A stretch of 32,000 bases of DNA from Crocosphaera subtropica ATCC 51142 (GCF_000017845.1 NC_010539.1:7621-39620), one strand, 5' to 3'; positions 4,441 through 21,942 are shown, numbered from the stretch's first letter. Made by a program: numbers and translations. Notes: generated by a model from the sequence alone, not told the origin.

Positions 4441-4603
4441 AAGATGCTGAAATGACCTTTAATTAAAGAAAATTAATTGAGGCTTATAATTCAATTCCGA
4501 ATGTGATGGAATGACGAGATTTTGTAGCACAATTTTAACTAAGGAGGGGCTTAAAAAATATTGATTCGATGTTATATAATTAATAAAAAGTCCTGAAAAA
4601 GTT

Positions 4604-6094
4604 ATGAGTCAATCAGTAGTCGTCCCTGATGAATTAGGGGAAATAATAACAGCTGTTATTGAATTTTATCAAGATGCAGTTGATAAGATAGAGCCAAAAA
4701 TAGTCTTTTTAGAATTAAGAAAGAATGTAGTGGACTGGGTATCAAGAACTCAGTTAAAAATAGAAGAAAAAGAAATTCAAGCCACTGGATTAACAAGACA
4801 ACAGCAAACAGCCTATAAAGAGATGATTAATTTTATTGAGAATAGTTCAGAGCAATACTTTAGGTTGAGTGGATATGCTGGCACAGGAAAAAGCTTTTTA
4901 ATGGCTAAAGTAATTGAATGGTTAAAACAAGAAGACTATAAATATTCAGTGGCCGCTCCAACTAATAAAGCAGCGAAGAACTTAACCCAAATTGCCCGTA
5001 GTCAAGGGATAAAAATAGAAGCGACAACCGTAGCTAAACTTTTGAAACTACAACCGACTATCGATGTTGATACAGGACAACAAAGCTTTGAATTTAACTC
5101 GGAAAAAGAGTTAGAATTAAAAGACTATGATGTAATCATTATAGATGAATATTCTATGCTCAATAAAGATAACTTTAGAGACTTACAACAAGCAGTAAAA
5201 GGAGGAGAAAGTAAGTTCATTTTTGTGGGGGATAGTTCACAATTACCACCAGTCAAAGAAAAAGAACCGATTGTAGCTAATCATCCTGATATAAGAAAAA
5301 GTGCTAACTTAACTCAAATTGTTAGATACGATGGTGAAATAGTAAAAGTAGCAGAAAGTATCAGACGAAATCCACGGTGGAATCATCAAACTTATCCATT
5401 TGAAACAGTGGCCGACGGGACAATAATAAAATTGAATACAGAGGATTGGTTGCAACAGGCTTTGAGTCATTTTGAAAAAGAAGATTGGTTGAGTAATCCA
5501 GATTATGTAAGGATGATAACCTGGAGAAATAAAACAGCAGATAAGTATAATCAAGCTATTCGTGAAGCTTTATATGGGGAAAATGTAGAACAGTTAGTAG
5601 TGGGCGATCGCCTGATAGCAAAGAAACCAGTATTTAGAAGTTTACCAGGGGGTAAAAAGAAAGAGAAAAAGATAATTCTTAATAATTCAGAAGAATGCAA
5701 AGTAATAGAAACTCCCAAAATTAACTATAACGAAAAATATAAATGGGAATTTTATCAAGTAAAGGTAAGAACAGATGAAGGGGGAATGATTGAGTTAAGA
5801 ATTCTCACTTCTGAATCAGAAGAAAAAAGACAGAAAAAGTTAAAAGAGTTAGCTAAACGAGCTAGAGAAGAAGAAAATTATAGTGAGAAAAAGAAACAAT
5901 GGGCTATTTATTATGAACTAGATGAGTTATTTGATAATATGGCTTATGCTTATGCCCTGACTTGTCATAAAGCACAAGGAAGTTCCATCGATAATGTATT
6001 TTTATTAGTATCGGATATGCACTATTGTCGAGACAAAACAAAAATGATTTATACTGGATTAACTAGAGCTAAAAAATGTTGTTATGTAGGTTAG
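4604..6094 (+). CDS. SF1 RecD/Dda-like DNA helicase
   Basis: Walker A LSGYAGTGKSF, Walker B VIIIDEYSML, motif III FVGDSSQLPPV, and the C-terminal AYALTCHKAQGSSIDNVFL motif. Confidence 0.85.
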   Translation: MSQSVVVPDELGEIITAVIEFYQDAVDKIEPKIVFLELRKNVVDWVSRTQLKIEEKEIQATGLTRQQQTAYKEMINFIENSSEQYFRLSGYAGTGKSFLMAKVIEWLKQEDYKYSVAAPTNKAAKNLTQIARSQGIKIEATTVAKLLKLQPTIDVDTGQQSFEFNSEKELELKDYDVIIIDEYSMLNKDNFRDLQQAVKGGESKFIFVGDSSQLPPVKEKEPIVANHPDIRKSANLTQIVRYDGEIVKVAESIRRNPRWNHQTYPFETVADGTIIKLNTEDWLQQALSHFEKEDWLSNPDYVRMITWRNKTADKYNQAIREALYGENVEQLVVGDRLIAKKPVFRSLPGGKKKEKKIILNNSEECKVIETPKINYNEKYKWEFYQVKVRTDEGGMIELRILTSESEEKRQKKLKELAKRAREEENYSEKKKQWAIYYELDELFDNMAYAYALTCHKAQGSSIDNVFLLVSDMHYCRDKTKMIYTGLTRAKKCCYVG

Positions 6095-6784: not shown

Positions 6785-6985
6785 GGTCGTAATTCTAACA
6801 AAAATGTCGTAAGATTAGTGGGGAGAGGCATAAATAGAAAGCCAAGTAAAACATCATCCTTCATTATCTACGATATTGTTACCGTGCAGAAGTTAGCCGG
6901 CCATGCTTCCCCTGTTACCACGGCAAAGTATGATAGGAGAGGGGAGGCAGTTAAGAGAAAAGCGGTGCATAATTTGGGTTTTTAA
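6785..6985 (+). pseudogene. C-terminal remnant of a tyrosine recombinase
   Basis: The frame opens just after the stop at 6782-6784 and has no start codon. It reads ...FIIYDIVTVQKLAGHASPVTTAKYDRRGEAVKRKAVHNLGF*, which is the last ~35 aa of an integrase (D-I-x-x-V-Q-x-L-x-G-H-A-S...Y-D-R). The upstream catalytic motifs are absent. Confidence 0.6.
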
Positions 6986-7088
6986 GTGCCCGCTCGCTTC
7001 TTTAGGTAAAAACTTGAAAGTATTTAAGGAAAAATAACAATTTCTACGGTTTCTCCTGCTAAAATCAGATTAAAAGTTGCTGACTTTT

Positions 7089-8249
7089 TCACGAAAGATA
7101 GGGGCGAATTTTTTCAACCGCTACTGTCAGAATGTTAGCCGCTTTCTCAATGTCTTCATCAGTGGTAAATTTGCCAACTCCAATGCGTAAGGCTCCTTCA
7201 ATCATCTCATCAGATAACTTTAATGCACGCAATACATGGGAAGGAGTAGCGACTCCCGATGAACAGGCTGCACCCGTAGAAATGGCTAATTGATGGCGAA
7301 CTCTGGCGATAATAGCACTATTAGGAATCCCTGGTAGAGAAATATGAAGATTACCTGCAAGGCGAGCGTTTATGTTTCCGTTAACCTGTAAATCAGGGAT
7401 TTGCGCTTGTAATAAGGTTTGTAAGCGATCTCGTTGCCTAGCAATCTGCTGTTCATCTTGCTCCATTTCTAATTGACGCAGACGACAAGCTTCCCCTAAT
7501 CCCACAATACCAGGGACATTGAGGGTTCCTGAACGCAGTCCTTTTTGATGGCCACCCCCAAAGATAATGGGTTCGAGAGGATAGCCTTTTCTCACAACTA
7601 ATGCGCCAACGCCCTTGGGTCCATAAAGTTTATGGGCAGAAATAGCCAGGTAAGTAATGCCCCAGTCGTTGAAATTGATAGGAATTTTACCCACAGCTTG
7701 GGAGGCATCACAAAGGAAAGGAATATCGTATTGGTGGGCGATCTGACCAATTTTTTCAATGGGGTAAATATTGCCGATCTCATTGTTGGCTGCCATAACA
7801 CAGAGAAGGGATAGTCCATCAGCACAGGTATTTTCCAGATTTTCTAAATCTAATCGTCCAAAACCATCAACTTTGAGGTAAATGAGTTCAGCTTGTCCTT
7901 TTTTGGCGAGCATTTGAATGGTGTCTAAAACGGCTTTATGTTCCACGGGAGAAACGGCGATGCGGGGGAGTTTAGGGGAATTGATGGCTTGAATATGACC
8001 AATAATGGCGAGATTAATGCTTTCCGTTGCACCAGAGGTGAAGATAATGTCTTTGGGGGAAGCCTTAATCAGTTGGGCGATTGCTTGACGGGCGTTGTAA
8101 ACTGCTTTTTCAGCTTCATCGCCGTAGGTGTGGTCAATGCTGCTGGCGTTACCGAAGGCTGTAGTTAAGTAATAAACCATTAATTCAGCCACTCTGGGGT
8201 CAACGGGGGTGGTTGAATGGTAGTCAAGGTAAATGGGTTGAATTGTCAT
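7089..8249 (-). CDS. NifS/IscS-type cysteine desulfurase (SspA/DndA-like role inferred from context)
   Basis: PLP lysine motif ISAHKLYGPKGVGAL, catalytic cysteine loop ISTGAACSSGV, and a class V aminotransferase N-terminus. Its ATG overlaps the stop of the upstream 1841-aa gene (ATGA, 8246-8249). Confidence 0.9.
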   Translation of the reverse strand: MTIQPIYLDYHSTTPVDPRVAELMVYYLTTAFGNASSIDHTYGDEAEKAVYNARQAIAQLIKASPKDIIFTSGATESINLAIIGHIQAINSPKLPRIAVSPVEHKAVLDTIQMLAKKGQAELIYLKVDGFGRLDLENLENTCADGLSLLCVMAANNEIGNIYPIEKIGQIAHQYDIPFLCDASQAVGKIPINFNDWGITYLAISAHKLYGPKGVGALVVRKGYPLEPIIFGGGHQKGLRSGTLNVPGIVGLGEACRLRQLEMEQDEQQIARQRDRLQTLLQAQIPDLQVNGNINARLAGNLHISLPGIPNSAIIARVRHQLAISTGAACSSGVATPSHVLRALKLSDEMIEGALRIGVGKFTTDEDIEKAANILTVAVEKIRPYLS

Positions 8250-11200
8250 AGATTTTGACTTAAATCCTGTTTAATTGCTTCAGCAACTAAGGAAAATTCT
8301 TCATTCGATAAGAATGGCACTTGAGTATATATTAAATCTGATTCCCCTGGTAGTCTTGCGGCTAAATGTCCTTTGCCTAGAAGACATTCTCCTCCTTTTT
8401 GTCCCAAGGAAATTTCGGAAGTTCCTACACTCTCAACTCTTAAGATTAAGCGATTGCCTAAGTTATCTCGAAGCTGCATGGGAAAGACATTATTATCGGG
8501 ACGTTGTGCTGCAAAGATTAGATGAATTCCGGCTGCTCTTGCTTTAACTCCTAAGCGTTGTACAGCAGAAGATACAGCATTTTTATATTCTTCTACTAAC
8601 ATCCAATCAGCAAATTCATCATGAACTAAAAGAAGAACAGGCAATTGTTTTTCAGCAGAAACTTTTTGATTATAAACCAATAAATTATTGACTTTTTGTT
8701 CTCTAAATAGTTGATAACGAGAATCCATTTCGCTAACAATTTTTTCAAATACTTCAATGCCTTGATATTGTTCAGTAATGATTCCTTCTGTTAAATGGGG
8801 TAAGTCTTCTAAGGGGAAATAATCGGTTCCTTGTTTAGCATCAATTAAGTAAATTTTTACCAATTCTGGAGAATTAGTAGCGCAGACATCTAAGAGAAGA
8901 TTTCTTAATAAGACTGATTTACCGCTTCCCGTTGCTCCGGCAATTAAAGTATGAGGGGCGTGCTGTTGAAGATGAGCAAATTCTTCTCCTAAATTAAGAT
9001 ATAGTAATTCTCCATCAATTTCTTTGACTCCAATGATGAAACTAAGATTAACTCCTGCTTTTAGATTAATTTCTCGTTGCTTCCATACTTGAGAAAGGGA
9101 AATAATTTCTCGTTGGGGACGAGCGATAGAAACGATAATTTCCCCAGGCGCACCTAAGATATTGATGACATTTAACCCATGAGTTGTTAATAGACTTGAA
9201 CGACGAGTTTCAATATCTTTAATATTAAGACGATCTGAGCCTTTAAAACGAATTAAAGCAGCATTAGGGGTTAATCTTTGTCCTAATACTTTAGCTTGTA
9301 AATCATAGCTAATTAGAGCTTTTCGTAGTGTTGAAACGGTTGTTTCTAACCATTTTTTTTCTTGTTGCTCATTGATTTTAGATTCAGTTTGTTGATTAAT
9401 CCATGTCGCTAAAGCAGGACTAGCCCAAGTTGTTTGTGTTATATTATTAACTTCTTTCTTTTCCTCATTTTTGTTCTGATTTGTATAATTTAATTGATTT
9501 AAGTGGTTACTTTGACTATTATAATCAGAAACTCCATTACTATTTTGTTGGGAATTAAAGTCGTTAATAGGATGGTTATCATTAGCAGCCTTATTAGGAG
9601 TTTTTAACGAATTTATGCTGTGACTAGGATGAATATTTTGAGGAGAAGTAACAAGGGATTGCTTTTGGTTTGAATTAATTGTTGTTAGATTCTCGTTTTG
9701 CAATGTCCTGTTGACTATTGTTTCAGTAGATTCTGTACTTAAACTTTCTATATATGCTATTTTTTCTGATGAAGCTGAATCATCAAGAATTGGTAATTCT
9801 AAAATAGGATTTACCCAAACCACTCTATCAGCTGGAAATCTTGGTTCTGAAACTGTCCAAGGTTGTTCATTTCCTAATTTTTCTCGAATAGATGCTAAGG
9901 GTTGTTGGTGATGAATAGCTAATACTAATTGACGAACAGTTTCTCGATTAAATATTTCTTGATAACATCTATCTACTTTAGCAATTGGTATTTGATCGTT
10001 ACTAACAGAGGTATCGCTAGGTCCAGAGATAAACACATGAGAATACCCTGATAAATCAAGGGGAATCGTGCCGTCTCTAACACCTTTTCGCCATTCTTCA
10101 ATGGAAATTGAATCAGTTGAATTAAATTCAATTCCATCTAATAATAAATCTCCTAAACGAGATAACCATAAATCTCGGTCAAGTCGCCCTGGACTTACAA
10201 ATAAAGCATTAGCCATTCGTTCAACGGTATCTCTTAATTGATGTTGAGAACTTTTACGGGCATCATTTAATCCATTTGCTTCAATATATTTAGCTTCAGA
10301 AATAATTATTTTAAGAACAGGTTGCTCATTTTTTATTTGAGGACTGATAGCTAAAATATCAGCAATTCTTCCTTCTTTTTGTCCTAACCAACTAGCATAG
10401 TCATCTAAAAAATACCAACCAACAGGATGTTCTTCTCCTAATTCAGATAATAATAAAGCTTTACTTAATACCACTCCCATTAATTCACTGGCATATTTAC
10501 CACTTTTTGCGGCTCGTAATATAATATCCCCTGAAATGTCTTTAGCTTGCTCAATAAACTGTTCTGCTAACGTTTTGATAGTGGTTTCATCTAAGTCTAA
10601 ATTTAAGCTTTCTAAACGGCGTTTGACAAGGACTTGTAACAGGTTCAAAGGAGCATTAGAAGATACTAAAAAATTACGGTCATCGCTGCGACTTTGTTGA
10701 TAGCGAATGACATTAACACCTTGATTGATTAATTGTCGTCTTTCGAGTAAATCATCATAATTAACGACCCATTCTCCTAGACGATGAACTTCTTTAAATA
10801 CTGTGCTAGTGTCTTCATCTTGGAAGGAAATCTGTCTTGCAGGAAGAAAATGCTGATTTTTGGCACAATCTAAATCTACCCGTTTTAAACTACTATAAAT
10901 GGCATCTAGATAAGTTTGTCCTACAGATGGTTGACTCGGACAGACTAAATAAACCGTCGATTTTAATTCGTCTTTAGCAGCAGGACGTTTTCTTGAGTAG
11001 CGTGTGGGAACGTGCTTGAGAATATCGGGGTTATCGTTAGATAAAGGGGTCGGTTGCCAAACTATTTCTGCTTGTCTGGAAATAATATCTTGAAGAAAGA
11101 CAATATCAGCGATTTTTCCGTTAGATGAAGATGATGTGTTCGACATGACGCTGATTCGCAGTCTGGCCATAAAATCGTGAGTCCCTTCACTAGCGACAAA

Positions 11201-13771
11201 AGCATCTGCATCGGTTTGAGAACTTTCTATGAGTTGCTGATACAAATCACTTAATTTGGGGGAATCTCGATGACATAAAATGACTTGACAACGAGCTTCA
11301 TTATAGTTGTCTTGTAATTCACTTAGTTTTGTAATAACTGTTTGGGGAAGTCTAGTGGAGTCACATTGATAAAGAATGATACTCAAATTTGTTTGTTCAT
11401 GGGGGAGTAATTCGAGGTATCGCTTCATTAAGTCTAGCAGTTTATTGGCTGCCTTTTTGGGGTCTTCATTGGTAGACTGTTGAGTTATATCTTTTATTGG
11501 TTGTTCAAGGAGACTGTAATCATTGACTGTATCAGACAGATAAAGTAATAAAGGTTCATTCCCTTTATAACCTAAACAAACTTCGGGATAATAAGGGTGA
11601 GTGAGTTCATTTCTTAAATCAGAGAAGAATAAACGGGAATCTCCAAAATTAACGTCTTCTGTTGAAAGAATATGTTTCAGTAATCCTGAAATTTGGCGGG
11701 CTTTAATGCTCAAAGAGGCTAATCTTAAGGGATGCCAAGGCGTAATAATAGCAGCAGGTTTTCCTCGTTTGACTTCCACACACCCTAAGCGTAAAATAGG
11801 TTCAATTAATTCCACTCGATTAGTATCACCCAGGGCATGATTAAGGAGAGTTTTAAGAAGTTCTTGATAGTCATCGCATTGGTGGATTAAAACAGGATGG
11901 GAAATCCCTTCTTGACTTAACCAACTATTCAGGGCTTTTGTATAAGTTTCTTTAAATTTTCCCCAAGCTTGTTTAATTATTTCTGCGGATTCTGAAGATA
12001 AGCGATTATCTTGAACTGCCTGTTTAAGAGCCGTAGGAAACAGTTTAGCTAAGTCTTGTTTTCGGTCATATTTACTGACTAAAGAGCCTCTATCTTGTCG
12101 ATAAGCAGCCATTAAAGTACCGACATCATCCAGAGAAATTCCTTGAAGACGACCTTTTTTGCTGACTAATTCCCGTGATACTTCAGAGATAAGAAAAGGA
12201 GAGGGGTTGGAATTAACTAACCGGTTTAAGTCATCATGAAGTTCCATTCCAATACTATTGGGATTTACCTTCCAAATTAATTGAATTTTGCTGATTAATT
12301 CTTGAGAAAAACAAGAACGAAGTTCTACATAAAATTTGATTTCACAAGCGGCTTTAGCTACAGAAACATTTTTTTTATATTTTTTCTTATTTTTCGTTTG
12401 TTCATCTTTTAATAATTCATCATATTTAAACAGCCAGTGAGTCTCCCAAGTAATTTCAGGATAGGTTAACTGTTCAATCCCTCTATACCTTGTACAAAAA
12501 TATAATCCCATGTCTGCATTGAGTTCTAACCATTTACTTTTACGGGAACTTTTTTGAGTTTTAATAATTAATTGAGTCGGATTTTCTTGAGAATCAGCTT
12601 GGTCAAAGAGTCGCTCAAAGGCTTGAACTAAACCCACTAAAAAGTCAGTGCATTCGATGGGTTGACCGTAGACAAATTTATCCCATTTGGTTTTGAGAGT
12701 ACGGTCATTTTCTAATTCAGACCGATGGTTATCATAAAATTCTTTGTCTTCTTCGTTAGCTTCTTTGGCTTTTCTTTTCTTTAATGTTTCTAGATAGTCT
12801 AATTCAGATTCGGTTAAACTATCAGGGTATTCATCTTCATAAAATTGTTGGGTTAAACTATATAAGTCGGTTTTTTTTGTTTTTAATCCACTAAAAATAG
12901 CGTGAATATTATCTATTTCCCATTCAAATTTAGTTAAAGCTTTCCCTTGTTCATTCCATTCCGGCGGACTTTTAATGAAGGCTTGAATAATAGAATGGGC
13001 TTGCTCAGGAATGTCTTCTTTAACCTTTTCAAAGGTCGATTGTAACTCACTTTCTTCAATGGGTTTACGGGTAGGGGTTTGTTTGAGTAACAGACAAGCC
13101 CGTTTAGAAACCGCCTGTTGATACTTTTGTTGCCACTTTTGGGCGTGTCCCCAAGTTTTTTGGGGTATGGCTTCAAAATACCCCGAATCACGGGGTAAAC
13201 GTAAGGCAGGTAAAGCCCATCCCAAGGCATTAATGATAGGAACACTTTCTGAGGCGATGCGCTCACGAGTATCCATGACATAGTTCGCAAATTGCTCTAA
13301 ACTGCATTCGCTGGCTGCAAGTAGTCCTTTTAACGCTTTGTTCCAGTATTTTAATTGTTCATCAGGTAAATCTAAGCCCTCACTGGCCACGTCTACCCAA
13401 ATTTCAATTTGTTCTTTTAAGAGTCCTGCACCCAAGGCAGAAATATCTTTTAAAGATTGTCCTTGGTCATCGTTAGTATTAGCTAATAGCAGACAAGGGC
13501 GGTCACAGGGAGCATGGCGTAGGTGAACGGTCTTTTCATCGGTTAAAATAGCTTCAGGAAGGTCATATCCTGCCACTAGAGTGCGAGGAATTTGGATTTT
13601 AATGTGGGGAGATAAGTCAGGGGTAGCGAGAATAGACTGACAAATGTTCGTGACTTGTTCTCCTGTTAAACGGTCTAAGATAAACCGAGCAACTCCGTCT
13701 GAATCCTCTGTATTTAGGGATTCTCTGAGAAATTTTGTCGCTACTTGGCCAATTAAATCAATAGAATCCAT
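8246..13771 (-). CDS. 1841-aa DptH/DndH-like protein: large soluble N-terminal region, PD-(D/E)xK-like motif, N/Q/S-rich linker, C-terminal FtsK/SpoIIIE-type ATPase
   Basis: FtsK-type Walker A LIAGATGSGKSVLLRNLLLD (nt ~8915-8940). Walker B LLLVHDEFADWM (~8605-8623). AAGIHLIFAAQRPDNNVFPMQLRDNLGNRLILRV is also present. D1138...E1159-A-K1161 (IADILAIS...IIISEAKYI) is the nuclease-like motif. The DptH assignment rests on size, position after two smaller genes and the PT-gene context, not on a measured alignment. Confidence 0.55.
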   Translation of the reverse strand: MDSIDLIGQVATKFLRESLNTEDSDGVARFILDRLTGEQVTNICQSILATPDLSPHIKIQIPRTLVAGYDLPEAILTDEKTVHLRHAPCDRPCLLLANTNDDQGQSLKDISALGAGLLKEQIEIWVDVASEGLDLPDEQLKYWNKALKGLLAASECSLEQFANYVMDTRERIASESVPIINALGWALPALRLPRDSGYFEAIPQKTWGHAQKWQQKYQQAVSKRACLLLKQTPTRKPIEESELQSTFEKVKEDIPEQAHSIIQAFIKSPPEWNEQGKALTKFEWEIDNIHAIFSGLKTKKTDLYSLTQQFYEDEYPDSLTESELDYLETLKKRKAKEANEEDKEFYDNHRSELENDRTLKTKWDKFVYGQPIECTDFLVGLVQAFERLFDQADSQENPTQLIIKTQKSSRKSKWLELNADMGLYFCTRYRGIEQLTYPEITWETHWLFKYDELLKDEQTKNKKKYKKNVSVAKAACEIKFYVELRSCFSQELISKIQLIWKVNPNSIGMELHDDLNRLVNSNPSPFLISEVSRELVSKKGRLQGISLDDVGTLMAAYRQDRGSLVSKYDRKQDLAKLFPTALKQAVQDNRLSSESAEIIKQAWGKFKETYTKALNSWLSQEGISHPVLIHQCDDYQELLKTLLNHALGDTNRVELIEPILRLGCVEVKRGKPAAIITPWHPLRLASLSIKARQISGLLKHILSTEDVNFGDSRLFFSDLRNELTHPYYPEVCLGYKGNEPLLLYLSDTVNDYSLLEQPIKDITQQSTNEDPKKAANKLLDLMKRYLELLPHEQTNLSIILYQCDSTRLPQTVITKLSELQDNYNEARCQVILCHRDSPKLSDLYQQLIESSQTDADAFVASEGTHDFMARLRISVMSNTSSSSNGKIADIVFLQDIISRQAEIVWQPTPLSNDNPDILKHVPTRYSRKRPAAKDELKSTVYLVCPSQPSVGQTYLDAIYSSLKRVDLDCAKNQHFLPARQISFQDEDTSTVFKEVHRLGEWVVNYDDLLERRQLINQGVNVIRYQQSRSDDRNFLVSSNAPLNLLQVLVKRRLESLNLDLDETTIKTLAEQFIEQAKDISGDIILRAAKSGKYASELMGVVLSKALLLSELGEEHPVGWYFLDDYASWLGQKEGRIADILAISPQIKNEQPVLKIIISEAKYIEANGLNDARKSSQHQLRDTVERMANALFVSPGRLDRDLWLSRLGDLLLDGIEFNSTDSISIEEWRKGVRDGTIPLDLSGYSHVFISGPSDTSVSNDQIPIAKVDRCYQEIFNRETVRQLVLAIHHQQPLASIREKLGNEQPWTVSEPRFPADRVVWVNPILELPILDDSASSEKIAYIESLSTESTETIVNRTLQNENLTTINSNQKQSLVTSPQNIHPSHSINSLKTPNKAANDNHPINDFNSQQNSNGVSDYNSQSNHLNQLNYTNQNKNEEKKEVNNITQTTWASPALATWINQQTESKINEQQEKKWLETTVSTLRKALISYDLQAKVLGQRLTPNAALIRFKGSDRLNIKDIETRRSSLLTTHGLNVINILGAPGEIIVSIARPQREIISLSQVWKQREINLKAGVNLSFIIGVKEIDGELLYLNLGEEFAHLQQHAPHTLIAGATGSGKSVLLRNLLLDVCATNSPELVKIYLIDAKQGTDYFPLEDLPHLTEGIITEQYQGIEVFEKIVSEMDSRYQLFREQKVNNLLVYNQKVSAEKQLPVLLLVHDEFADWMLVEEYKNAVSSAVQRLGVKARAAGIHLIFAAQRPDNNVFPMQLRDNLGNRLILRVESVGTSEISLGQKGGECLLGKGHLAARLPGESDLIYTQVPFLSNEEFSLVAEAIKQDLSQNL

Positions 13772-15457
13772 TTAAGTTTTCTCCACAGTGTAAGGATTAA
13801 GGACATAAGCACAAGCATCGGAAAGGCGTTTGAGTAACCCCAAGGATGCGAGGCGTTGTTCGAGACGTTCTGCATTATCAGAAAAAGCTTCAAGGTCTGC
13901 TTCTTTGCGCTGAATGATGTCAATGGCTTGTTTTTCACCAATTATGAAGCCATATTTTTGATAGAGTGTGTCTAAAAATTCTTGAAATTCCATCCGTTTT
14001 GGGACACAACAAAGTACCAAGGTTTTTAATAGGGAGTCGGTGGGTGCATATCGGGTGCGACGACTTCCCCTGCTCGAAGCGAGTCCAATTTCTTTTGTCC
14101 ACTTACTATGAAATTGACCAACGTGCTGTTTATGTCTAGTAATTGCTGAGAGACGAATTTCTTCTAATAGTTCATCGGGAGAATTACATTTGATTTCATC
14201 CTTTTTATAGTAAATTTCTTCTTTGATAATTTCTAAGGCATCTTCTATGGAGTTGGCAGAGTTAAGACAGGTTTGCCATTCTGGAAGTTGAGACAGTCTT
14301 TTTATATAGTGTTCAACCGCTCGTTTACTCAGGTTATTATTGTTTAAAAAGGCATCGGAAGCTAGGTCACGAATAATCGTTTTTTTGGGAGCAATTATTT
14401 CTAAAATTAATTGAGGTTTATCTTGACTATTCAAGGTGGTTGTTGAGTTCAATGAATCTTCATTGGTATTAGCTATAGTTTCTGACTTAAATAATAGATT
14501 TTGTTGACTATTTAAGAGACTTTCTGAGGAGAATCTAGGGTCATCTTCATTATTTAAGACGGCCTTAGCTCGTTTGAGTAGGTAAATGACTAAATGGACT
14601 CCTGTAATAGTAACTAAATGGGGTAAAGAATCATAGTCAGGAAGATGGCAATTAAATAGATTTATCCAATCATTAGCTAAGTTTTCAAATTCATCAAGAT
14701 GTTCATAGGGAAGATAGGGAGGACTGCTATCTTTTCCTCTTGGTTTTGTATCAGAATGATCATTAGGTTGAAGGGTAGCAACTAATTTATTCCATTTACT
14801 CGATTGTTTATGATCTATTATTCCTAATTTTTTTAGATGGGTTAAAATGTCTAATTTTAAAGAACTACGACTAATCATGAGATAAAGTAATTCTCCATTT
14901 CTGGCAAAAAAACGACGGTCATTGCTATAACTATTCTTACTAATTCTTAAATCCTCATAAAGACAATTAACCCCATAGGGAAAGACAAATTTAGAAGTCC
15001 AACGTTTATTACTATCACCTTCAATGGCATTAGATTGAAGAAATCTTACCACTTCTAGAAAGTCCCGAAACCTTATAAAGCGTTCTTGTAAATAACTAAA
15101 GTTAGGGGTGTTAATACCTCCACAATTATCATTCATTAAAGTTAACCATTGTTGCCAACGTTCTTCTTCTGTTGGATATTCTGCATAAACTGCTTCTAGA
15201 AAAGGATTATTAAACAGGATATTTCGTAAATAAAGACGACTATAAGAGGGATATTCTAATTGATGATTTTCAGGTTCAATAAAAGCTTGCTCTCTTTCTA
15301 ATTGTGTTTGAACAATGCCTAAAAATTCTAGAAGGGTTAACCAAGGGGTTTGTTCATCATAAAGACGATGACCCCAAATAGCTTCATCAACCCACATTTC
15401 AGTTTCTCTATGGGTTTTATTATGAGATGTAGGTTTAGGAAGACGTTTTATTATCAT
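13772..15457 (-). CDS. hypothetical protein, DptG-like by position
   Basis: 561-aa ORF. Its start overlaps the upstream stop (ATGA, 15454-15457), and its TAA abuts the downstream ATG (TAAATG, 13769-13774). I see no enzymatic motif. It has a conserved-looking N-terminus (EAIWGHRLYDEQTPWLTLLEFL) and an S/N-rich internal insert. Confidence 0.4.
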   Translation of the reverse strand: MIIKRLPKPTSHNKTHRETEMWVDEAIWGHRLYDEQTPWLTLLEFLGIVQTQLEREQAFIEPENHQLEYPSYSRLYLRNILFNNPFLEAVYAEYPTEEERWQQWLTLMNDNCGGINTPNFSYLQERFIRFRDFLEVVRFLQSNAIEGDSNKRWTSKFVFPYGVNCLYEDLRISKNSYSNDRRFFARNGELLYLMISRSSLKLDILTHLKKLGIIDHKQSSKWNKLVATLQPNDHSDTKPRGKDSSPPYLPYEHLDEFENLANDWINLFNCHLPDYDSLPHLVTITGVHLVIYLLKRAKAVLNNEDDPRFSSESLLNSQQNLLFKSETIANTNEDSLNSTTTLNSQDKPQLILEIIAPKKTIIRDLASDAFLNNNNLSKRAVEHYIKRLSQLPEWQTCLNSANSIEDALEIIKEEIYYKKDEIKCNSPDELLEEIRLSAITRHKQHVGQFHSKWTKEIGLASSRGSRRTRYAPTDSLLKTLVLCCVPKRMEFQEFLDTLYQKYGFIIGEKQAIDIIQRKEADLEAFSDNAERLEQRLASLGLLKRLSDACAYVLNPYTVEKT

Positions 15458-17361
15458 AATTGAATCTCCAAGGTTCTTTCATTAGCTATTCCATCGGCAT
15501 TAAGTTCTAGTAAACGAATAATCATCTCTGAAGCTTCAGTTTCGTCGGCTTCTTCTTCTTTTTGTCTTCTAATATTAAGTTGTCCTAACAGTCGAGTTTT
15601 AAAAGCTAACATATCCTCATAACATTCTTGAGAAAAGTTACTGGGTAATGCTCCTTCTGCAACTCTGTTTAGGTATTCATAGCGAGTTAAATTTAATCGG
15701 AGTTTTATAGGGTCAACTTCAGGGTGGGAAGATAGAGAAATAATAAAATCGGGAGTATTATGGTCAGTATTTAATTCAACTGTGACACTTTCACCTCGTT
15801 TTTTAATAACAGAAATATATTCTTCAAAGACTCGACTAATCTTGGCTTGAGAATAACTACCAGATGTTGCTAAAACTAATTGATCTTGATTATTTATCAA
15901 TAATCCGGTAAAGATACGATTGATTCCTTTAACTATTTTAAAAATGAGATATTTAGGAATGGTTTGATTTTGTTTTAATGGTCTACAGACTTGTTCTAAA
16001 TAGTCTCCTGCATACTGAAAAGCTGTTAATTCCCATAGTTTTAACTCTGCTACTCTATGCTGAGGAATAGTAAAGAATAATCGCTGTCTTTGTGTGTGAA
16101 GTATATTTAAGAATTCTTCTTTACTGTCTTGAGAATCATTGCTTTCTAAATAGCTTTTTTGAGCAATACGAAATTGTTGATGTGCGCCATAAAAAGTATC
16201 TGTTAAGACTAAGTTTTCATAATCTTGTTTTAAGTCCGGGTCATCTTCTCCAAAAATAAGAATATTATCAATATAGTTACTGCTTTCTGTACCAATTCCA
16301 AAATATCTTAAAGCAACAAAGACATCAGTTTTATTTCGTTTTCTGCTAGAAAGATTTTCTCCAAATAGATTACTATAAGGACTAGCTAAATAACCTGTTT
16401 TTTGAGTTGTAATTTTAGGAATTTGGTTACAGTTAAGTAATTTATCTTTGACATCAGGATGTCCTAAGATAATATTAGAAATAAGGAGAAGTAATTGACG
16501 AATAGGAAGATGGGTTCCTTTATGACGAGATAATTCGAGAAGGTCAATAATTCGCTGTCTCATTAACTGTTGGTCATTTTTTCCATCGAGTCTGGTTTTG
16601 TTTTCCCAAATGGGACAGCGTTGCTGACTATCTGTAGGAGTTTGATAGGGACATTGACTACATTCTTCCCAACCAGGATGATTTAAAACTGCATCAAGAA
16701 TGCGAGAAAAGATTTCTTCGTTATTTAAGCGACTTAGGTTATAAAGAAGTAGGTTAAACTCAGGATTTTCTCTTTTTTCTTCTACCAATAAGGTTTCAAT
16801 TAATTGACGTGCTTTTTCTATTTGAGGAGTGTTTTCTGCAACGTTCCATGCTTCGATGAGTTGTCCATCATTAGCAGCAATTAAGTAAACTTTATCGGTA
16901 TGATAGGGGTTGATGATCCCTTCTGCTATTTGAGGTAATAGTTGGGTTTTTTCTTCGTCTTGAATGGCACTGAGGTCTTTTATAATAATTAGAGTTTTTT
17001 GTAAGAGTGGTAGTTTATATATTTCTTGATTGGTTTCCCACTCTTCTTTTGACCCTCCTAATTTTTCCCAAATTTCTCGACAGCAGAATGTTTTTCCATC
17101 TCCTGCTGTTCCGGTGAGAATCACCGATTTAGGGAAGTCAGATTGAAAGTTATCGATTAATTCTTGTAGGTAAGGAGTTTCAAAACAGATGGGTTGAATT
17201 TTGTTTTTCTTTAATGCTCGTTGAATTGCCTCATCATACATATTATCATTACGAGGAATTGGCCCATATTGACGGAGAAAGGTAATCCATTTTGATTTTT
17301 TGAAAGTAGAATTATAATTCATAATTAGAGTAATTAAACTTAAATATATATAACCAATCAC
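15454..17361 (-). CDS. P-loop NTPase with a cysteine cluster, DptF-like by position and motif
   Basis: Walker A VILTGTAGDGKTFCCRE, a Walker B-like LIIIKDLS, and the Cys cluster ECSQCPYQTPTDSQQRCPIW. The likely true start is ATG 17322 (MNYNSTFKKSKW), because the first 13 codons of the track ORF read like AT-rich leader. Confidence 0.45.
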   Translation of the reverse strand: MIGYIYLSLITLIMNYNSTFKKSKWITFLRQYGPIPRNDNMYDEAIQRALKKNKIQPICFETPYLQELIDNFQSDFPKSVILTGTAGDGKTFCCREIWEKLGGSKEEWETNQEIYKLPLLQKTLIIIKDLSAIQDEEKTQLLPQIAEGIINPYHTDKVYLIAANDGQLIEAWNVAENTPQIEKARQLIETLLVEEKRENPEFNLLLYNLSRLNNEEIFSRILDAVLNHPGWEECSQCPYQTPTDSQQRCPIWENKTRLDGKNDQQLMRQRIIDLLELSRHKGTHLPIRQLLLLISNIILGHPDVKDKLLNCNQIPKITTQKTGYLASPYSNLFGENLSSRKRNKTDVFVALRYFGIGTESSNYIDNILIFGEDDPDLKQDYENLVLTDTFYGAHQQFRIAQKSYLESNDSQDSKEEFLNILHTQRQRLFFTIPQHRVAELKLWELTAFQYAGDYLEQVCRPLKQNQTIPKYLIFKIVKGINRIFTGLLINNQDQLVLATSGSYSQAKISRVFEEYISVIKKRGESVTVELNTDHNTPDFIISLSSHPEVDPIKLRLNLTRYEYLNRVAEGALPSNFSQECYEDMLAFKTRLLGQLNIRRQKEEEADETEASEMIIRLLELNADGIANERTLEIQL

Positions 17362-17383
17362 AATTTATGATTTAACACTTTTA

Positions 17384-19108
17384 TTAAGATGTATCTTTCC
17401 TTTGTGACCAAATTAGTAAAGCTAGTTCTTCTAATTCAGCTATTTTTAATGAATCAGTTACACAAAATAAATCAATATTTCCACCAACTTCTTGCTGAAG
17501 TTTAGATTTTAGAGTCTTTAAGACTGATTTTCCATAACGATATCTCTCACAATCTTGGTCATACATTTGATAACAGTTTGAAGCTATTTGTCCATTATTG
17601 ATTCTTCCGTTACCTTTTTGACGAGATTGTTGTAATTCTATGTCTGTCCGACTATTTATAAACTTTTCTTTCGATTTTTCAGATTTTTCAGCAGTGGAAT
17701 TACTGATAAGCTCTTGTATCCTATCTGTTGTTAATTGTGGATATAAAGATTGGATATGTCCAAGATTAATAAAATGAGATTCTGCATCTGTTCCAGTTGT
17801 TAAAAAGCACAATATATTTGCTCGTTCAATTTTTTCTCTAAAATCGTTTGCTTCATCATCCGTTAAATAATCTCTATCTCTATGTAATAATATTTTAGTT
17901 TGAGAACTATGTTTTCGGATAAAAGCAGCTAAAACTAATGCTGTTTCAACTTTAGTACATCCTTTATATGACCAAATATCAACTTCATCCATTCTAAACC
18001 CTGATGCTTCTAGCAATGTTTCAATAGGTTTAGTGTCTTCATCTTCAGTTAATAAAACACATTTAATATTTTCAGTATTTAATAATAATTCATCTTTATC
18101 TAAAGCTCCAATATCTAGTAAAAGTTGAACAGTATCAAAATCTTTTTCATTTATAATTGTTCCATTCTTTAACCAATATATTTTTGTCTTTTCTCGTAAC
18201 GCATCAAGGAGATGTCTTGAATGAGTAGTTACTATAATTTGTAAATCGCGTTCTTCAGTCAATTTGATTAGCATTTTAGCTAATTTTCGTTGGTTATTTG
18301 GATGTAAATGCGAATCGGGTTCATCTAAAAGTAATATTTGAGGTTTATAAATATTAATATAAGATATAATTTGTATCGCTTGTAAAACCCCTGTACCAGC
18401 TAAATCTATTGGTAAACTATTTTCATCATTGGCTTGAATTTGACAATTAATATAATCATCACGTTCTGGATTAAACTCAACAATAACTTTTAAGTCAGGA
18501 AATAAATAATTAAAGTCTGATATAAATTGTTTCCATTGTTCTGATTCATTGTGAAGAAGGTAAAGAACATTTCGGAATACTTTATTGGCATCTCCTCTAG
18601 CAGCTGCCTTTCTAACAATCCCTGGAGTTTTACATTCTTCTACGTCAGGAATACCAGCTAGTCCAGGGACATAAATACTATATGGTGTTTCTATGATTTG
18701 TAGTCTTTCTCCTAATTCTTTTCCTTCTACTGTAATCGATAAATTTCTATTTCTCCCTTTTCTCACTGTAACAAGAACATTTTGTTTTTCTTGATTTTCT
18801 TCAAAAGAAATGATAATTGCTTGATCTTTATTTTCAACCAGTTTACCTCCATAGGCCAACGCATAAACATCTCTAAGAGGCGCATAGATTAGCTGCTGAG
18901 GGGATAATGAAGTTGATAATTTTTCATCCTTCCAATTTACATTACTCTGAAGACTAGCTGTTTGACCAACAGATACAGCAAATTGTATAGCTTGTAGAAT
19001 GCTACTTTTTCCAGAATTATTTGAACCTACCAAAATATTAACTCTATCAAGGTCTAAAGTTAAATTTTCTAAATTCTTGAATCTTTGTATAGTTATTTTG
19101 CCAAGCAT
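17384..19108 (-). CDS. fused ABC-type (AAA_15/21-like) ATPase + Toprim/DUF4435-like domain protein (OLD-family / PARIS AriA-AriB-fusion-like)
   Basis: N-terminal half: ITIQRFKNLENLTLDL...ILVGSNNSGKSSILQAI (Walker A), ILLLDEPDSHLHPNNQ (Walker B/D-loop), IVTTHSRHLLD (H-loop). C-terminal half: CVLLTEDEDTKPIE (Toprim Glu region), YKGCTKVE, ILLHRDRDYL (DxD), TTGTDAESHF. Confidence 0.65.
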   Translation of the reverse strand: MLGKITIQRFKNLENLTLDLDRVNILVGSNNSGKSSILQAIQFAVSVGQTASLQSNVNWKDEKLSTSLSPQQLIYAPLRDVYALAYGGKLVENKDQAIIISFEENQEKQNVLVTVRKGRNRNLSITVEGKELGERLQIIETPYSIYVPGLAGIPDVEECKTPGIVRKAAARGDANKVFRNVLYLLHNESEQWKQFISDFNYLFPDLKVIVEFNPERDDYINCQIQANDENSLPIDLAGTGVLQAIQIISYINIYKPQILLLDEPDSHLHPNNQRKLAKMLIKLTEERDLQIIVTTHSRHLLDALREKTKIYWLKNGTIINEKDFDTVQLLLDIGALDKDELLLNTENIKCVLLTEDEDTKPIETLLEASGFRMDEVDIWSYKGCTKVETALVLAAFIRKHSSQTKILLHRDRDYLTDDEANDFREKIERANILCFLTTGTDAESHFINLGHIQSLYPQLTTDRIQELISNSTAEKSEKSKEKFINSRTDIELQQSRQKGNGRINNGQIASNCYQMYDQDCERYRYGKSVLKTLKSKLQQEVGGNIDLFCVTDSLKIAELEELALLIWSQRKDTS

Positions 19109-19138
19109 AAAATTTCATGAGATCAATAATAACAGTGA

Positions 19139-19939
19139 TTACAAATGACACACTAAACAAGGCAAATCATCATCCTCCTCATCTAAAACCACCTCTAACG
19201 CTTCGGATAAAGGTCGATTAGGGGCTGCTTTTTTCTCACGGGCGATCGCCTTCTCATGATTAGCGATAATCTCCTCTTTGCGTTCCAAAAGTTCTAGTAA
19301 CGTTTCTCCTTCCGTCCAGGTGTAAGTTCTGCCATCCCTGTGATTAGATTCATATTCCACCGCCTTCGCAAACAAATCAGGATGTTCTTGGGCTAACATC
19401 ACCCATTCATATTTGCGTTGGAAGAAACAAAAGAAACAGCCCGAACGACTTCGCCAGCGATAATAATCTGGCAAACCAATCCCACTATCCTCTAATAAAC
19501 GGATAATATCGGCTTTTACTAATCCTCGTTCCTTAAACGGAAAAACAGGCTTAATATTGGGCTTAGTAGAGATGTAACCCTCTCGATTTTCATCCGCACG
19601 AATGCCAATATAGCTAATAGCCTCATCCTCACCCACAAACTCCTCTAACGGCTTAATCTTCATTTTTACCGTACACCAGCGCATTTTTGGAGAAGGTAAT
19701 AGACCATCGTGCATCGTTAACCAGTGGTCAAACCCTCGGTTTTCACTGAGATAATGGATTGTGATACCTAGACGGGCTTTAATGCGGTCAAGATACTCAT
19801 AGGTTTCAGGGAGTTCTTTGTGAGTGTCACAGAAGAAATACTCCATATCTGGGATTTCCTTGTGCAGTAGTACCGCCAAAGCTGTGCTATCCTTGCCTCC
19901 TGAGAGTCCCAGTATGTGCCTTATTTTCTTTTGTGCCAT
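19139..19939 (-). CDS. sspD: PP-loop / PAPS-reductase-family protein, SspD-like
   Basis: PP-loop ILGLSGGKDSTALAVLL plus cysteine pairs SGCFFCFF and LPCLVCHL. It lies in the same-strand cluster as the DUF4007, large P-loop and cysteine desulfurase genes. It is short (266 aa) compared with DndC. Confidence 0.6.
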   Translation of the reverse strand: MAQKKIRHILGLSGGKDSTALAVLLHKEIPDMEYFFCDTHKELPETYEYLDRIKARLGITIHYLSENRGFDHWLTMHDGLLPSPKMRWCTVKMKIKPLEEFVGEDEAISYIGIRADENREGYISTKPNIKPVFPFKERGLVKADIIRLLEDSGIGLPDYYRWRSRSGCFFCFFQRKYEWVMLAQEHPDLFAKAVEYESNHRDGRTYTWTEGETLLELLERKEEIIANHEKAIAREKKAAPNRPLSEALEVVLDEEDDDLPCLVCHL

Positions 19940-20052
19940 TACGTCCTAAATTCTCCTGGGCTATGATTTTAGCGTTCCCAATAATCTGATCCAAGTAACA
20001 TCTTTACCGAAAAATTAGTTGAAATGAAAGTATTTAGTAAAAACTTTTACAT

Positions 20053-20637
20053 TCAAGAGGGGATAGAAAGAACATTACAAATTTCTCGTCCTTGGATAGT
20101 TGTTGTTTTGAGGGGAGAAAACCCATTTTCTTCCCACTGATATGGAGTAATGTCAATTACGTTAGAACCAACTAGGAAATTTCCACAATTTATTTTTCCT
20201 GTATTAGCTCGATTAGATGTATAGAGAACAAAGCCACTTCCATAAGGTCTTATTTCAATAAAGTTCATCGTTGAAAAAATGGGTTTAATTTTTCTTGATT
20301 GACTTTCAAAAATGTAGGCATGGGTTGAAATCCCACTTCCACCTCCACTTGACAGTAAAACTACTAAAGCATCTTCTTTGGAATCATCATTAAAGTCTCT
20401 GTACTGAACTTTATCTAATGAAACATAACCCCAATCATCATCTTGATACTGACCTTGTTTGAGGGTTATATTTCCAGAAGGTCCCATTCCTCCTTCTCTT
20501 ATTTGGTAAGTAAAATTATTAAAATCTATTTGCCTAATTATTTCTTCGGCATAGCTAGGTGGTACAAGTAAAAATCCTAGGGAAAAAGAGGTTATTAATC
20601 CAGTTAACAATTGATTGTTTTTCATAACTTTGCCCAT
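20053..20637 (-). CDS. exported hypothetical protein
   Basis: Signal-peptide-like N-terminus (LLTGLITSFSLGFLLVPPSYA|EE). The start may be Met5 (MKNNQ...). No family recognised. Confidence 0.55.
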   Translation of the reverse strand: MGKVMKNNQLLTGLITSFSLGFLLVPPSYAEEIIRQIDFNNFTYQIREGGMGPSGNITLKQGQYQDDDWGYVSLDKVQYRDFNDDSKEDALVVLLSSGGGSGISTHAYIFESQSRKIKPIFSTMNFIEIRPYGSGFVLYTSNRANTGKINCGNFLVGSNVIDITPYQWEENGFSPLKTTTIQGREICNVLSIPS

Positions 20638-20699
20638 TAATAATTAAGTTTGACTTTGCAACGAAATGCTATTAAGACTAAAAGTAAAAAGCTTAGCCC

Positions 20700-21269
20700 T
20701 TATTGATTTAATAATGTGATTCTACTCAAGAAATTAGTTAAGTCTTGTAGTTCAACTTCACAGTCACATCTAATTGAGACTTCTAGTAGTTTTGATTTAT
20801 CTGGAATGGTTCCTAAAAAAGTCATACTATAACCACTCTCAGAAACTATAATATAGCCAGGATTTCTACTATTTTTATAAAAAAAATATGTTTTCAAGTC
20901 ACCATGATAAATATCTAAAATTAGTTCCTTTAAACCTTCTGACTGGTTATTTTCAATTAATCTAATACTTTCGGAATAACGACCTGTATGATATTGGGCT
21001 ATACCACCATTGGCTATACATTCAAGAAATTGGTAATCATTAGGATGAAGAATTTCTACAGAACGGTCTTGTTTCAGCATAACTCTATAGTTTTCAGGAA
21101 TATCAACACTTATTCCAAAACCTTCAAGGTTTAGTCTTCTATAAGTAGGAGAAGGAGATTCATAATTGCCATCAATTTCACATAGCACCTCAGCAAAACT
21201 TGGTTGAGATAAAAAAGAGACGAATAAGCTAATAGAAGAAAATAAGGTAATAATTGATAAAAATTTCAT
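20700..21269 (-). CDS. exported hypothetical protein (paralogue of 21322-21942)
   Basis: Signal peptide MKFLSIITLFSSISLFVSFLSQPSFA|EV. LEGFGISVDIPENYRVM aligns with LEDFGIKISNIPTNYRAM in the neighbouring gene. Confidence 0.55.
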   Translation of the reverse strand: MKFLSIITLFSSISLFVSFLSQPSFAEVLCEIDGNYESPSPTYRRLNLEGFGISVDIPENYRVMLKQDRSVEILHPNDYQFLECIANGGIAQYHTGRYSESIRLIENNQSEGLKELILDIYHGDLKTYFFYKNSRNPGYIIVSESGYSMTFLGTIPDKSKLLEVSIRCDCEVELQDLTNFLSRITLLNQ

Positions 21270-21321
21270 AATAGCCTTACATTGATGATTTTAAAAATAG
21301 GAACACTAAAAAATTAGAAGG

Positions 21322-21942
21322 TTATAGAGTTTTAGAGAGTAAAGTTACATTAGGTAACATACATTTCAAGACTTGTAACCCTGGCTCTCCTGGATATATA
21401 TGTATTCCTAATACTTGCTTTCCTGGTATATCTATATAGTAAGCAGCACCATCACCTAGTTCAATTAAGTATCCAGATCGTAAGTTTCCCAATGAATCTA
21501 ATATTTTATGCTCTTTCATATAGCCAAGAGAATCTCTATTTTGATGAGCATGATTTAAAATTTCTTCTAAAGATGTTTGTTCAAAGAATATATAGATGTT
21601 AGGATAATCTCCTAGATAATCTGCACGGGAATCATTCGGTTTCTGAAGAACCTCGAATACATCTTGTCTGATAATATCAACTCTCTTTAATCCATTGAGA
21701 CCACTCATTGCTCTATAGTTGGTTGGAATATTGCTAATTTTAATGCCAAAATCTTCCAAAACGATAGTACGGTTAGTTGTAGCTGCTGGTGTCCCATAAA
21801 AGTTGGACAAATTACATTTATCTTTTCCATTTATCTTGACACTGTTAGGAAGAAATTGAGCAGAGGTTTGCTCAAAATAACCTAATGTAGTAGACAAAAA
21901 GGTTAATATAAACACTAGAAAATACAAATTGCACCGTTTCAT
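21322..21942 (-). CDS. exported hypothetical protein (paralogue of 20700-21269)
   Basis: Signal peptide MKRCNLYFLVFILTFLSTTLGYFEQTSA|QF. It shares a motif with the 189-aa neighbour. Confidence 0.55.
   Translation of the reverse strand: MKRCNLYFLVFILTFLSTTLGYFEQTSAQFLPNSVKINGKDKCNLSNFYGTPAATTNRTIVLEDFGIKISNIPTNYRAMSGLNGLKRVDIIRQDVFEVLQKPNDSRADYLGDYPNIYIFFEQTSLEEILNHAHQNRDSLGYMKEHKILDSLGNLRSGYLIELGDGAAYYIDIPGKQVLGIHIYPGEPGLQVLKCMLPNVTLLSKTL

Follow-up and report, generated by a model that had tools for sequence, protein, structure and literature searches.

The window, by which we mean the whole stretch of 32,000 nucleotides (nt) analysed here, represents most of a plasmid of the cyanobacterium Crocosphaera subtropica ATCC 51142 (GCF_000017845.1, NC_010539.1:7621-39620) and carries, on its minus strand, an Ssp locus in which four genes are nested within a frame of phosphorothioate (PT) modification genes. 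The frame opens with sspB (29800-30708; 302 amino acids), which encodes a DUF4007 protein (PADLOC SspB 1.3e-123; Pfam DUF4007 4.5e-106), and continues with sspC (23315-27067; 1250 amino acids), whose product is a BrxC-like ATPase matched over its full length by PADLOC SspC PDLC02781 (E = 0, 1524 bits). These are followed by sspD (19139-19939; 266 amino acids), encoding an ATP pyrophosphatase of the PAPS-reductase type (PADLOC SspD 6.1e-115; Pfam PAPS_reduct 9.8e-15), and the frame is closed by the cysteine desulfurase gene sspA (7089-8249; 386 amino acids; PADLOC SspA 4.3e-141, DndA 1.1e-141; Pfam Aminotran_5 2.4e-73). The resulting order is sspB...sspC...sspD-[effectors]-sspA, with sspFGH and a gene of the OLD family inside, and the stop codon of sspD forms the 5' edge of a variable effector slot. 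The SspD protein is 80-89% identical to its counterparts in many metagenomic loci. The initial annotation had set the block between an SspD-like gene and a cysteine desulfurase, and both assignments held, the second as SspA/DndA-type (about 1e-141). We consider it reasonably probable that the block combines the known SspFGH module with an independently exchangeable OLD cassette, a probable second-layer effector that occupies the slot of sspE.

The first gene of the block (17384-19108; 574 amino acids) encodes an ABC-ATPase of the OLD family that probably also contains a Toprim nuclease domain, as judged from Pfam and PADLOC matches, fold and phylogeny. It is followed on the same strand by sspF (15454-17361), sspG (13772-15457; 561 amino acids) and sspH (8246-13771; 1841 amino acids, with a C-terminal FtsK/SpoIIIE-type translocase). 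The coordinates and sizes given previously for these four minus-strand open reading frames (ORFs), between 19108 and 8246, were reproduced, as was their spacing of 30 nt or less, or overlap. The gap between sspD and the OLD gene measures 30 nt and the gap between the OLD gene and sspF 22 nt, or 61 nt when sspF is read from the ATG at 17322; sspF and sspG overlap by 4 nt, sspG and sspH abut, and sspH overlaps sspA by 4 nt. Two starts were considered for sspF, a GTG at 17361 (635 amino acids) and the ATG at 17322 (622 amino acids), and the ATG is probably the true one, since the profile alignment begins at residue 26 and homologues comprise about 614-632 codons. The four ORFs are not products of chance, because they extend over 561-1841 codons in DNA of 30-36% G+C and their profile E-values reach down to 0. 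Furthermore, the G+C content at third codon positions (GC3) separates the frame genes (sspB 0.35, sspC 0.31, sspD 0.42, sspA 0.385) from the nested genes (OLD 0.14; sspF, sspG and sspH 0.21-0.24; small ORFs elsewhere in the frame 0.17-0.28), a split which suggests that the genes nested in the frame have a different or more recent origin.

By their profile matches, the last three genes of the block are sspF, sspG and sspH, a new member of a published system. Residues 26-633 of SspF aligned to positions 1-599 of the 600 in its PADLOC profile (PDLC02793, 5e-233), while SspG matched PDLC02799 at 3.4e-187 and SspH matched PDLC02806 at E = 0 and 2344 bits. The P-loop and cysteine cluster that had been noticed in the 635-residue protein were located, the former as a Walker A motif at residue 84 (G84TAGDGKT) and the latter as C234-x2-C237...C249. 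The 561-residue protein, described as having no visible motif, likewise gave none in the Pfam search, and the FtsK motor proposed for the 1841-residue protein corresponds to Pfam FtsK_SpoIIIE (2.6e-37, residues 1600-1758), with a Walker A motif at residue 1612. The PD-(D/E)xK-like motif suggested for the same protein found no profile match, including a Pfam search of three SspH segments at E <= 1. The view of the three genes as a PT-linked F/G/H restriction module was therefore correct in kind, and of the families named for it the one mentioned as a possibility, SspFGH, is the one that stands, whereas the identification with DptFGH/DndFGH does not.

SspFGH was described as a three-gene module in Vibrio anguillarum FF-93, where every gene is essential (PMC8092258). 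Together with iscS-sspBCD it protects Escherichia coli, with no fourth gene required, and in FF-93 it damages DNA that lacks PT, there the CpsCA phosphorothioate, is toxic when PT or sspBCD is missing and acts additively with SspE (PMC8092258). The plasmid module resembles SspABCD-SspFGH of FF-93 in the full-length profile matches to all three proteins, the same co-directional F-G-H order close to sspBCD, the Walker A motif of SspF and the FtsK-like C-terminus of SspH. It differs in being nested between sspD and sspA, with an OLD-family gene between sspD and sspF, and in a modification operon interrupted by seven small ORFs, whose N-termini resemble signal peptides, and by a toxin-antitoxin-like pair. 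Also different is the host, a cyanobacterial plasmid, and the function of the module is read from homology. As a separate observation, the SspG C-terminus (13772-14180) weakly resembles MAD7 (NCBIfam 1e-13, far under the cut-off), and the SspH motor (8246-9045) matches PADLOC mad8 at 1.5e-19. These similarities hint that the MAD6-8 core of the MADS system and SspFGH may be distant relatives.

The 574-residue protein is, in all likelihood, an OLD-family ATPase-nuclease, and its Toprim part is probable. The ABC-ATPase recognised earlier was confirmed by Pfam (AAA_15 8.4e-29, AAA_21 2.5e-23, SMC_N 1.6e-15) and by the Walker A motif G28SNNSGKS. The ATPase half was also matched by the PADLOC models for NsnB, AriA, AbiLi, Old and GajA; the Old model covered two short stretches, the better of them being residues 2-49. 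The best sequence match in the PDB was the OLD protein of Thermus scotoductus (6P74, 1.5e-15), confined to the ATPase half. Residues G28-K34 (Walker A), D262-E263 (Walker B), H296 (H-loop), E355 and D411xD413 are invariant in the family. For the proposed C-terminal Toprim domain, the predicted fold and the motifs are favourable, while profile support was absent and the isolated domain matched weakly. A full-length AlphaFold model, with a mean predicted local distance difference test score (pLDDT) of 89.1, aligned to 6P74 over 528 columns (Foldseek E 3.2e-12). The isolated C-terminal model (pLDDT 92.4) had as its top match the C-terminal region of the Burkholderia OLD protein (6NK8), a weak one at E 0.024 and probability 0.90, and as its third match a chain of the PARIS complex. 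In its predicted core, beta-alpha-beta-alpha-beta-alpha-beta, strand 1 is followed by the invariant E355/D356 and strand 3 by D411-x-D413, which is where Toprim residues are expected, according to the model and the alignment. Residues 321-574 returned no Pfam or PADLOC match, and searches of the C-terminal half in Pfam at E <= 10 and in PADLOC at E <= 1 gave no Toprim match.

Among known systems, the protein comes closest to Class 1 OLD proteins (phage P2 Old; the T. scotoductus OLD, 6P74), with which it has in common, on a single polypeptide, an ABC ATPase at the N-terminus and probably a Toprim-like domain at the C-terminus, as well as, across its family, the lack of a conserved helicase partner; 6P74 heads both the sequence and the fold searches. 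It departs from them in that the sequence alignment is limited to the ATPase motifs, the C-terminal half being profile-less, and in that one subclade of its family is fixed beside sspD. Unlike Gabija (GajA-GajB), it has no UvrD-like GajB neighbour, the adjoining genes being sspD and sspF, and the GajA models match the ATPase motifs only. In PARIS (AriA/AriB) the ATPase and Toprim (DUF4435) parts are split, whereas here a single ORF carries the ATPase half and the probable Toprim half. No GmrSD match was found in the protein with Pfam or PADLOC.

A metagenome scan that started from SspD yielded 80 loci at 63-89% identity (comparison loci carry the prefix L), and the place immediately after sspD proved variable. 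In the SspD tree, loci with the OLD gene are interleaved with near-identical loci that carry sspE. SspE is the PT-sensing effector of SspABCD-SspE. Two pairs of loci display the exchange at the DNA level. L116 and L005 are 95% identical from a Fic gene through sspD until about 5 nt past the sspD stop codon; nothing is shared across sspE (2.3 kb) in the one and OLD (1.7 kb) in the other, and homology returns at the 3' end of brxL at 95.6%. Likewise, L101 and L172 are 97% identical through sspB, sspC and sspD until about 10 nt past the stop codon, and homology resumes at the start codon of a helicase gene, at 95% over 7.3 kb. Because the flanks are 95-97% identical and the cassettes themselves unrelated, sspE and OLD represent alternative alleles at a single slot. 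One locus, L010, carries both, and its sspE-OLD intergenic region (7789-7883) holds a remnant of the sspD 3' end (…TTGTCATTTATAA), to be compared with the end of sspD itself (TGTCATTTGTAA). This remnant, in front of the OLD gene, points to recombination within the sspD 3' end as the route of cassette exchange.

The OLD gene and sspE thus have in common the slot 3' of sspD, allelic exchange, a nucleoside triphosphatase (NTPase) joined to a nuclease (predicted for OLD) and a second module that can co-occur. They differ in make-up, a DUF262 ParB-like NTPase with DUF1524/HNH (GmrSD-type) in SspE as against ABC-ATPase/Toprim, with no sequence or domain homology. The slot is occupied elsewhere by DndB-like pairs, ORC/Cdc6-like ATPases, HATPase_c_3 proteins and a PLD-helicase, and among about 57 scanned loci with at least 2 kb downstream of sspD, OLD follows sspD in one (L094). 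A second position, before sspA, is filled by SspFGH, by a helicase/HATPase_c_3/PLD-like trio or by BrxC-PglZ-BrxL.

Several of these cassettes are worth recording in their own right. One, lying about 20-3050 nt 3' of sspD in L092, L093, L097, L106 and L145, encodes a protein of about 235 residues and a DndB-like protein of about 800 residues (Pfam DndB 1.8e-06, just below the cut-off). Another, in L113, L150 and L180, encodes proteins of 169-178 and 444-454 residues, and its L180 copy carries Pfam DndB. Both DndB-like cassettes are candidate PT-associated effectors or regulators. The trio, located between slot 1 and sspA, combines a ResIII/DEAD helicase with an HATPase_c_3 protein and a third, PLD-like protein about 310 residues long (L010, 9598-13974; also L092, L093, L100, L101, L145, L153 and L172).

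A neighbour-joining tree of 127 homologues of the 574-residue protein (200 bootstrap replicates) placed it in an 11-member subclade supported by 164/200 replicates (82%), with 196/200 for the core. All nine members with readable flanks have sspD just 5' of the OLD gene (one placement, L180, was inferred), in L010 with sspE in between. The gaps between sspD and OLD measure 28-40 nt. What follows downstream varies. In the window the order is sspD-OLD-sspFGH-sspA; P0003 and P0008 (L005, L171) have sspD-OLD, an inverted DUF4007-BrxC-PglZ-BrxL set and sspA, and P0020 (L174) reads sspD-OLD-DUF4007-...-PglZ-BrxL. For P0029 (L094), a locus read less fully, the order is sspD-OLD...PglZ, with PglZ and BrxL matches downstream. 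A ResIII helicase-HATPase_c_3 set lies downstream of OLD in P0010 (L172; sspD-OLD-ResIII helicase-HATPase_c_3-...-sspA) and in P0004 (L010; sspD-sspE-OLD-helicase...), while P0013 (L176) shows an SspD C-terminal fragment, OLD and a ResIII helicase up to the contig end. In P0006 (L180) OLD comes after the 169-residue and DndB-like pair, the same pair that follows sspD in L113 and L150. A second effector module is present in every OLD-bearing locus with readable downstream DNA, and OLD was never seen as the sole effector between sspD and sspA. The ssp-linked subclade is fixed in position, without a fixed effector partner.

Outside this subclade the association disappears. An OLD-first scan, with one genome per species, gave 80 loci with identities of 25-59%, and in about 70 the sequence extended 1 kb or more upstream; ssp genes were found within +/-10 kb of the OLD relative in 0/80. 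Five further relatives outside the clade, at 48-61% identity, also had no ssp genes beside them (0/5), lying instead in defence-island, prophage or restriction-modification contexts. Among these five, whose neighbours carried Pfam labels, the genes adjacent to OLD varied from locus to locus, with no conserved partner gene, and a PLSDB search with the protein listed 22 weak relatives, all labelled "AAA family ATPase" only. The catalytic residues are invariant in ssp-linked and stand-alone members alike, and the linked clade is distinguished by only six diagnostic substitutions, with no insertion and no extra domain. One relative outside the clade (P0049; L178, 8367-13022) sits between a FokI-like/AlwI-like endonuclease gene, at a 26-nt gap, and a divergent C5 DNA methyltransferase gene, and in L003 and L007 two other, stand-alone relatives are found within 4 kb of a C5 methylase and Vsr; lodging in or beside modification-based systems may be general in the family.

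Taken together, these data describe a subclade sited 3' of sspD that swaps allelically with sspE, and the OLD gene is more than a one-off insertion. The initial annotation had reasoned that absence of the 574-residue gene from all orthologous loci would indicate a simple recent insertion. The gene is indeed missing from seven other sspD-sspFGH loci, which tells against its being a fourth component of the module, but a one-off insertion is contradicted by the sspD-fixed subclade.

According to the explanation we favour, SspBCD and SspA would make PT marks, by homology to FF-93, and SspFGH (17361-8246) would damage DNA without the mark through the P-loop NTPase of SspF and the FtsK-like translocase of SspH. 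The OLD gene (19108-17384) would be co-transcribed with the ssp operon while acting on its own, like its stand-alone relatives, and its product would act as a nuclease under ATP control, adding a second layer of defence to that of SspFGH. In its entirety the locus would be a modular frame of the form sspB-sspC-sspD-[slot 1]-[slot 2]-sspA, and recombination within the conserved genes on either side would replace one inner cassette by another. An autonomous role for the OLD protein, as an added defence layer, appears most likely from these comparisons, because its close relatives do without PT genes, linked members have the catalytic residues of unlinked ones, no extra domain is present and the protein is never the sole effector. 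Such a role parallels the published additive pair of SspE and SspFGH as well as the backup effectors embedded in BREX loci. OLD-ABC/TOPRIM modules inside BREX and BREX-related loci have been proposed to be backup effectors with their own sensors (PMC12839542, NAR 2026). The likeness lies in an OLD-type ATPase-nuclease placed inside a modification-based defence operon, and BrxC-PglZ-BrxL is itself found in L005, L171 and L174; the difference is that the host system of the OLD gene in the window is Ssp, based on PT.

Several observations weigh against this explanation or leave it without help. The OLD protein is 62-63% identical to its L005/L010 counterparts, SspB and SspC are 59-63% identical and SspD 80-86%, so that the divergence of OLD, on a par with SspB and SspC, fits a long co-inheritance with the modification genes. 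The strict position 3' of sspD and the exchange with sspE could equally reflect a tie of the OLD clade to PT. The clade sample is small, at nine proteins drawn from metagenomes that carry no taxonomic assignment. The nuclease part, although probable, is assigned from the model and the motifs, the isolated-domain fold and profile matches not being significant. Finally, a promoter and terminator scan of 6800-24000 gave the same counts as shuffled sequence and is silent on operon structure, supporting neither side, and a search for DNA repeats as possible recombination sites (19000-31000) returned just two short, poor inverted matches.

The alternative that survives best holds that the sspD-linked OLD clade is a PT-coupled effector that functionally replaces SspE, and we regard it as possible, if distinctly less than even in probability. 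Its ATPase would read the PT state, or the SspBCD-bound state, and permit the Toprim nuclease to act on phage DNA; a single modification module in the window would then serve both OLD and SspFGH as PT-dependent effectors. The precise replacement of sspE by OLD in loci otherwise 95-97% identical speaks for such coupling, as does a monophyletic subclade (82% bootstrap) linked to sspD in 9/9 cases while its outside relatives are not. OLD and SspE also share a two-part logic of NTPase and nuclease. SspE and SspFGH are a published additive pair (PMC8092258), and in the window OLD stands in SspE's place, as a GmrSD-like gene does in L135. A precedent exists in MADS, a methylation-based system: the lethality of mad5 loss depends there on the OLD-like ABC ATPase MAD3, and mad5 can be deleted only along with mad2 or mad3 (bioRxiv 10.1101/2023.03.30.534895). 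Set against this are the absence of sequence similarity between OLD and SspE and the want of any clade-specific domain or insertion that could read PT, beyond the six substitutions. Close relatives (56-61% identity) moreover occur in contexts without PT genes. Occupancy of the slot alone is no proof of coupling, since many unrelated cassettes are found there too, and OLD is never the only effector between sspD and sspA, L010 carrying sspE as well. The stronger statement, in which the subclade would constitute a third type of restriction partner for Ssp, governed by single-strand PT marks or by SspBCD and substituting for SspE, is tentative and, at about one chance in a few, rather improbable.

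A second alternative takes up the four-component variant of a PT-sensing restriction module proposed in the initial annotation and makes the block such a variant of SspFGH, with the OLD-like ATPase as a fourth subunit or regulator in the manner of MAD3 beside the MAD6-8 core in MADS. The initial annotation rightly observed that the described modules of three genes lack any counterpart of the first gene. This gene precedes sspF by 22-61 nt in the same orientation; its ATPase half is weakly like mad3 (PADLOC 2.9e-23), next to the likenesses of the SspG C-terminus to MAD7 and of the SspH motor to mad8. The comparative loci contradict the partnership. In the SspD-first scan, sspFGH directly follows sspD in L121, L124, L158, L161 and L170, while an HATPase_c_3 protein (L125) or the GmrSD-like protein (L135) stands between them in two others, so that all seven other sspD-sspFGH loci are without the OLD gene; L170 (sspD-sspF-sspG-sspH-sspA) is collinear with the window save for the 1.7-kb OLD cassette. 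Conversely, 8/9 members of the OLD clade have partners other than FGH or an unreadable downstream region, and three genes were enough experimentally in the prototype system. A dozen other AAA_15 families are matched at least as well as mad3, the NCBIfam MAD3 model reaches 64.4 bits against a cut-off of 420 over the N-terminal 100 residues only, and the codon composition of OLD (GC3 0.14) is unlike that of sspFGH (0.21-0.24). MADS (mad1-8) is comparable in being modification-based, in a core (MAD6-8) of which MAD7 and MAD8 bear a weak likeness to the C-terminus of SspG and the motor of SspH, and in having an accessory AAA_15-type ATPase, MAD3. It is unlike the plasmid locus in using methylation instead of PT, in a MAD3 without a fused Toprim and in similarities far below the cut-offs (64 against 420 and 51 against 410 bits). 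We rejected a MADS-like four-gene reading, the mad3, MAD7 and mad8 similarities being generic or far under the cut-offs, and the four-component proposal, judged by these sequence comparisons, is close to refuted and very unlikely to be right. The other option offered with it, an independent and undescribed effector system sharing the modification operon, fails for the block as a whole, given that three of its four genes are the published SspFGH, and survives in narrowed form for the 574-residue gene alone, as a separate cassette within the operon.

Assignment of the last three genes to DptFGH/DndFGH, the double-strand PT restriction module, which was prompted by like gene sizes and order, a P-loop in the first gene and an FtsK-like motor in the last (parallels also pointed out in PMC8092258), can be set aside with near certainty: the three proteins gave no match to DptF, DptG or DptH at E <= 0.001 with the NCBIfam dnd_assoc models or the PADLOC DndFGH models, as against 5e-233 to 0 with the SspF/G/H models, no DndB, DndD or DndE was found among the neighbours, the block being adjoined by sspB, sspC and sspD instead of dndBCDE, and the describing authors report no sequence homology between SspFGH and DndFGH (PMC8092258). 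Family membership was refuted by the profile searches and the neighbours together.

The remainder of the frame contains further genes. Five small ORFs of 194, 189, 206, 175 and 235 residues lie on the minus strand between sspC and sspD (20053-23211), with signal-peptide-like hydrophobic N-termini and no match in Pfam, NCBIfam or PADLOC; those of 189 and 206 residues are weakly similar to each other (E 1e-5). Predicted secreted proteins are odd company inside a DNA-modification operon, and the corresponding place in related loci is empty or taken by a Fic gene. Between sspB and sspC, the plus strand carries tandem paralogues of 194 and 189 residues (27630-28845; 39% identical, E 7e-33), also with signal-peptide-like N-termini and without a family match. 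A relationship between the minus- and plus-strand ORFs of equal size (194 and 189 residues) was considered and rejected, as blastp shows them to be unrelated. The same interval holds a toxin-antitoxin-like pair on the minus strand (28925-29635), composed of a DUF433 gene (29351-29635) and a DUF5615/PIN-like gene (28925-29257), and a PIN-like match also occurs in the effector region of L146, L147 and L148. Elsewhere on the plasmid, a T5orf172/MUG113 protein (3721-4440, plus strand; PADLOC PDC-S57) and a RecD/PIF1-like superfamily 1 (SF1) helicase (4604-6094, plus strand; PADLOC PDC-M16A 1e-42) are encoded side by side and are possibly a further candidate defence pair (3721-6094). The genes at the start of the window are of the plasmid maintenance type, namely a RuvC-like gene (733-1380), a gene for a PRiA4_ORF3-domain protein (1364-2677) and one for a tyrosine recombinase (2712-3584).

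In our literature search, no paper was found that connects OLD nucleases with Ssp, nor any that deals with this plasmid's Ssp locus. Islands of the form 'sspBCDB-brxCZL' have been noted in cyanobacteria with the OLD gene unmentioned (PMC12914056), and a reappraisal of Dnd systems makes no link between OLD nucleases and Ssp (PMC10853773). SspFGH was already known; what is new is an sspD-linked OLD subclade that swaps cleanly with sspE, and the recognition that this clade of ssp operons is an sspBCD...sspA frame enclosing exchangeable effector cassettes. The OLD cassette extends to Ssp the theme of OLD-ABC/Toprim modules embedded in BREX loci. Should the OLD protein be independent of PT, the locus would still represent a layered defence nested in a modification operon, with no new mechanism. 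If the subclade were instead a third kind of restriction partner, the sspD-sspA interval would serve as a slot reserved for effectors, and its other uncharacterised cassettes, such as the DndB-like pairs, the helicase/HATPase_c_3/PLD-like trio and the ORC/Cdc6-like ATPases, would likewise be PT-dependent effectors. The slot cassettes amount to a short, testable list of candidate PT-associated effectors, and the loci that differ in carrying sspE or OLD form a natural, isogenic-like pair with which to ask whether OLD-type nucleases can couple to modification of the DNA backbone.

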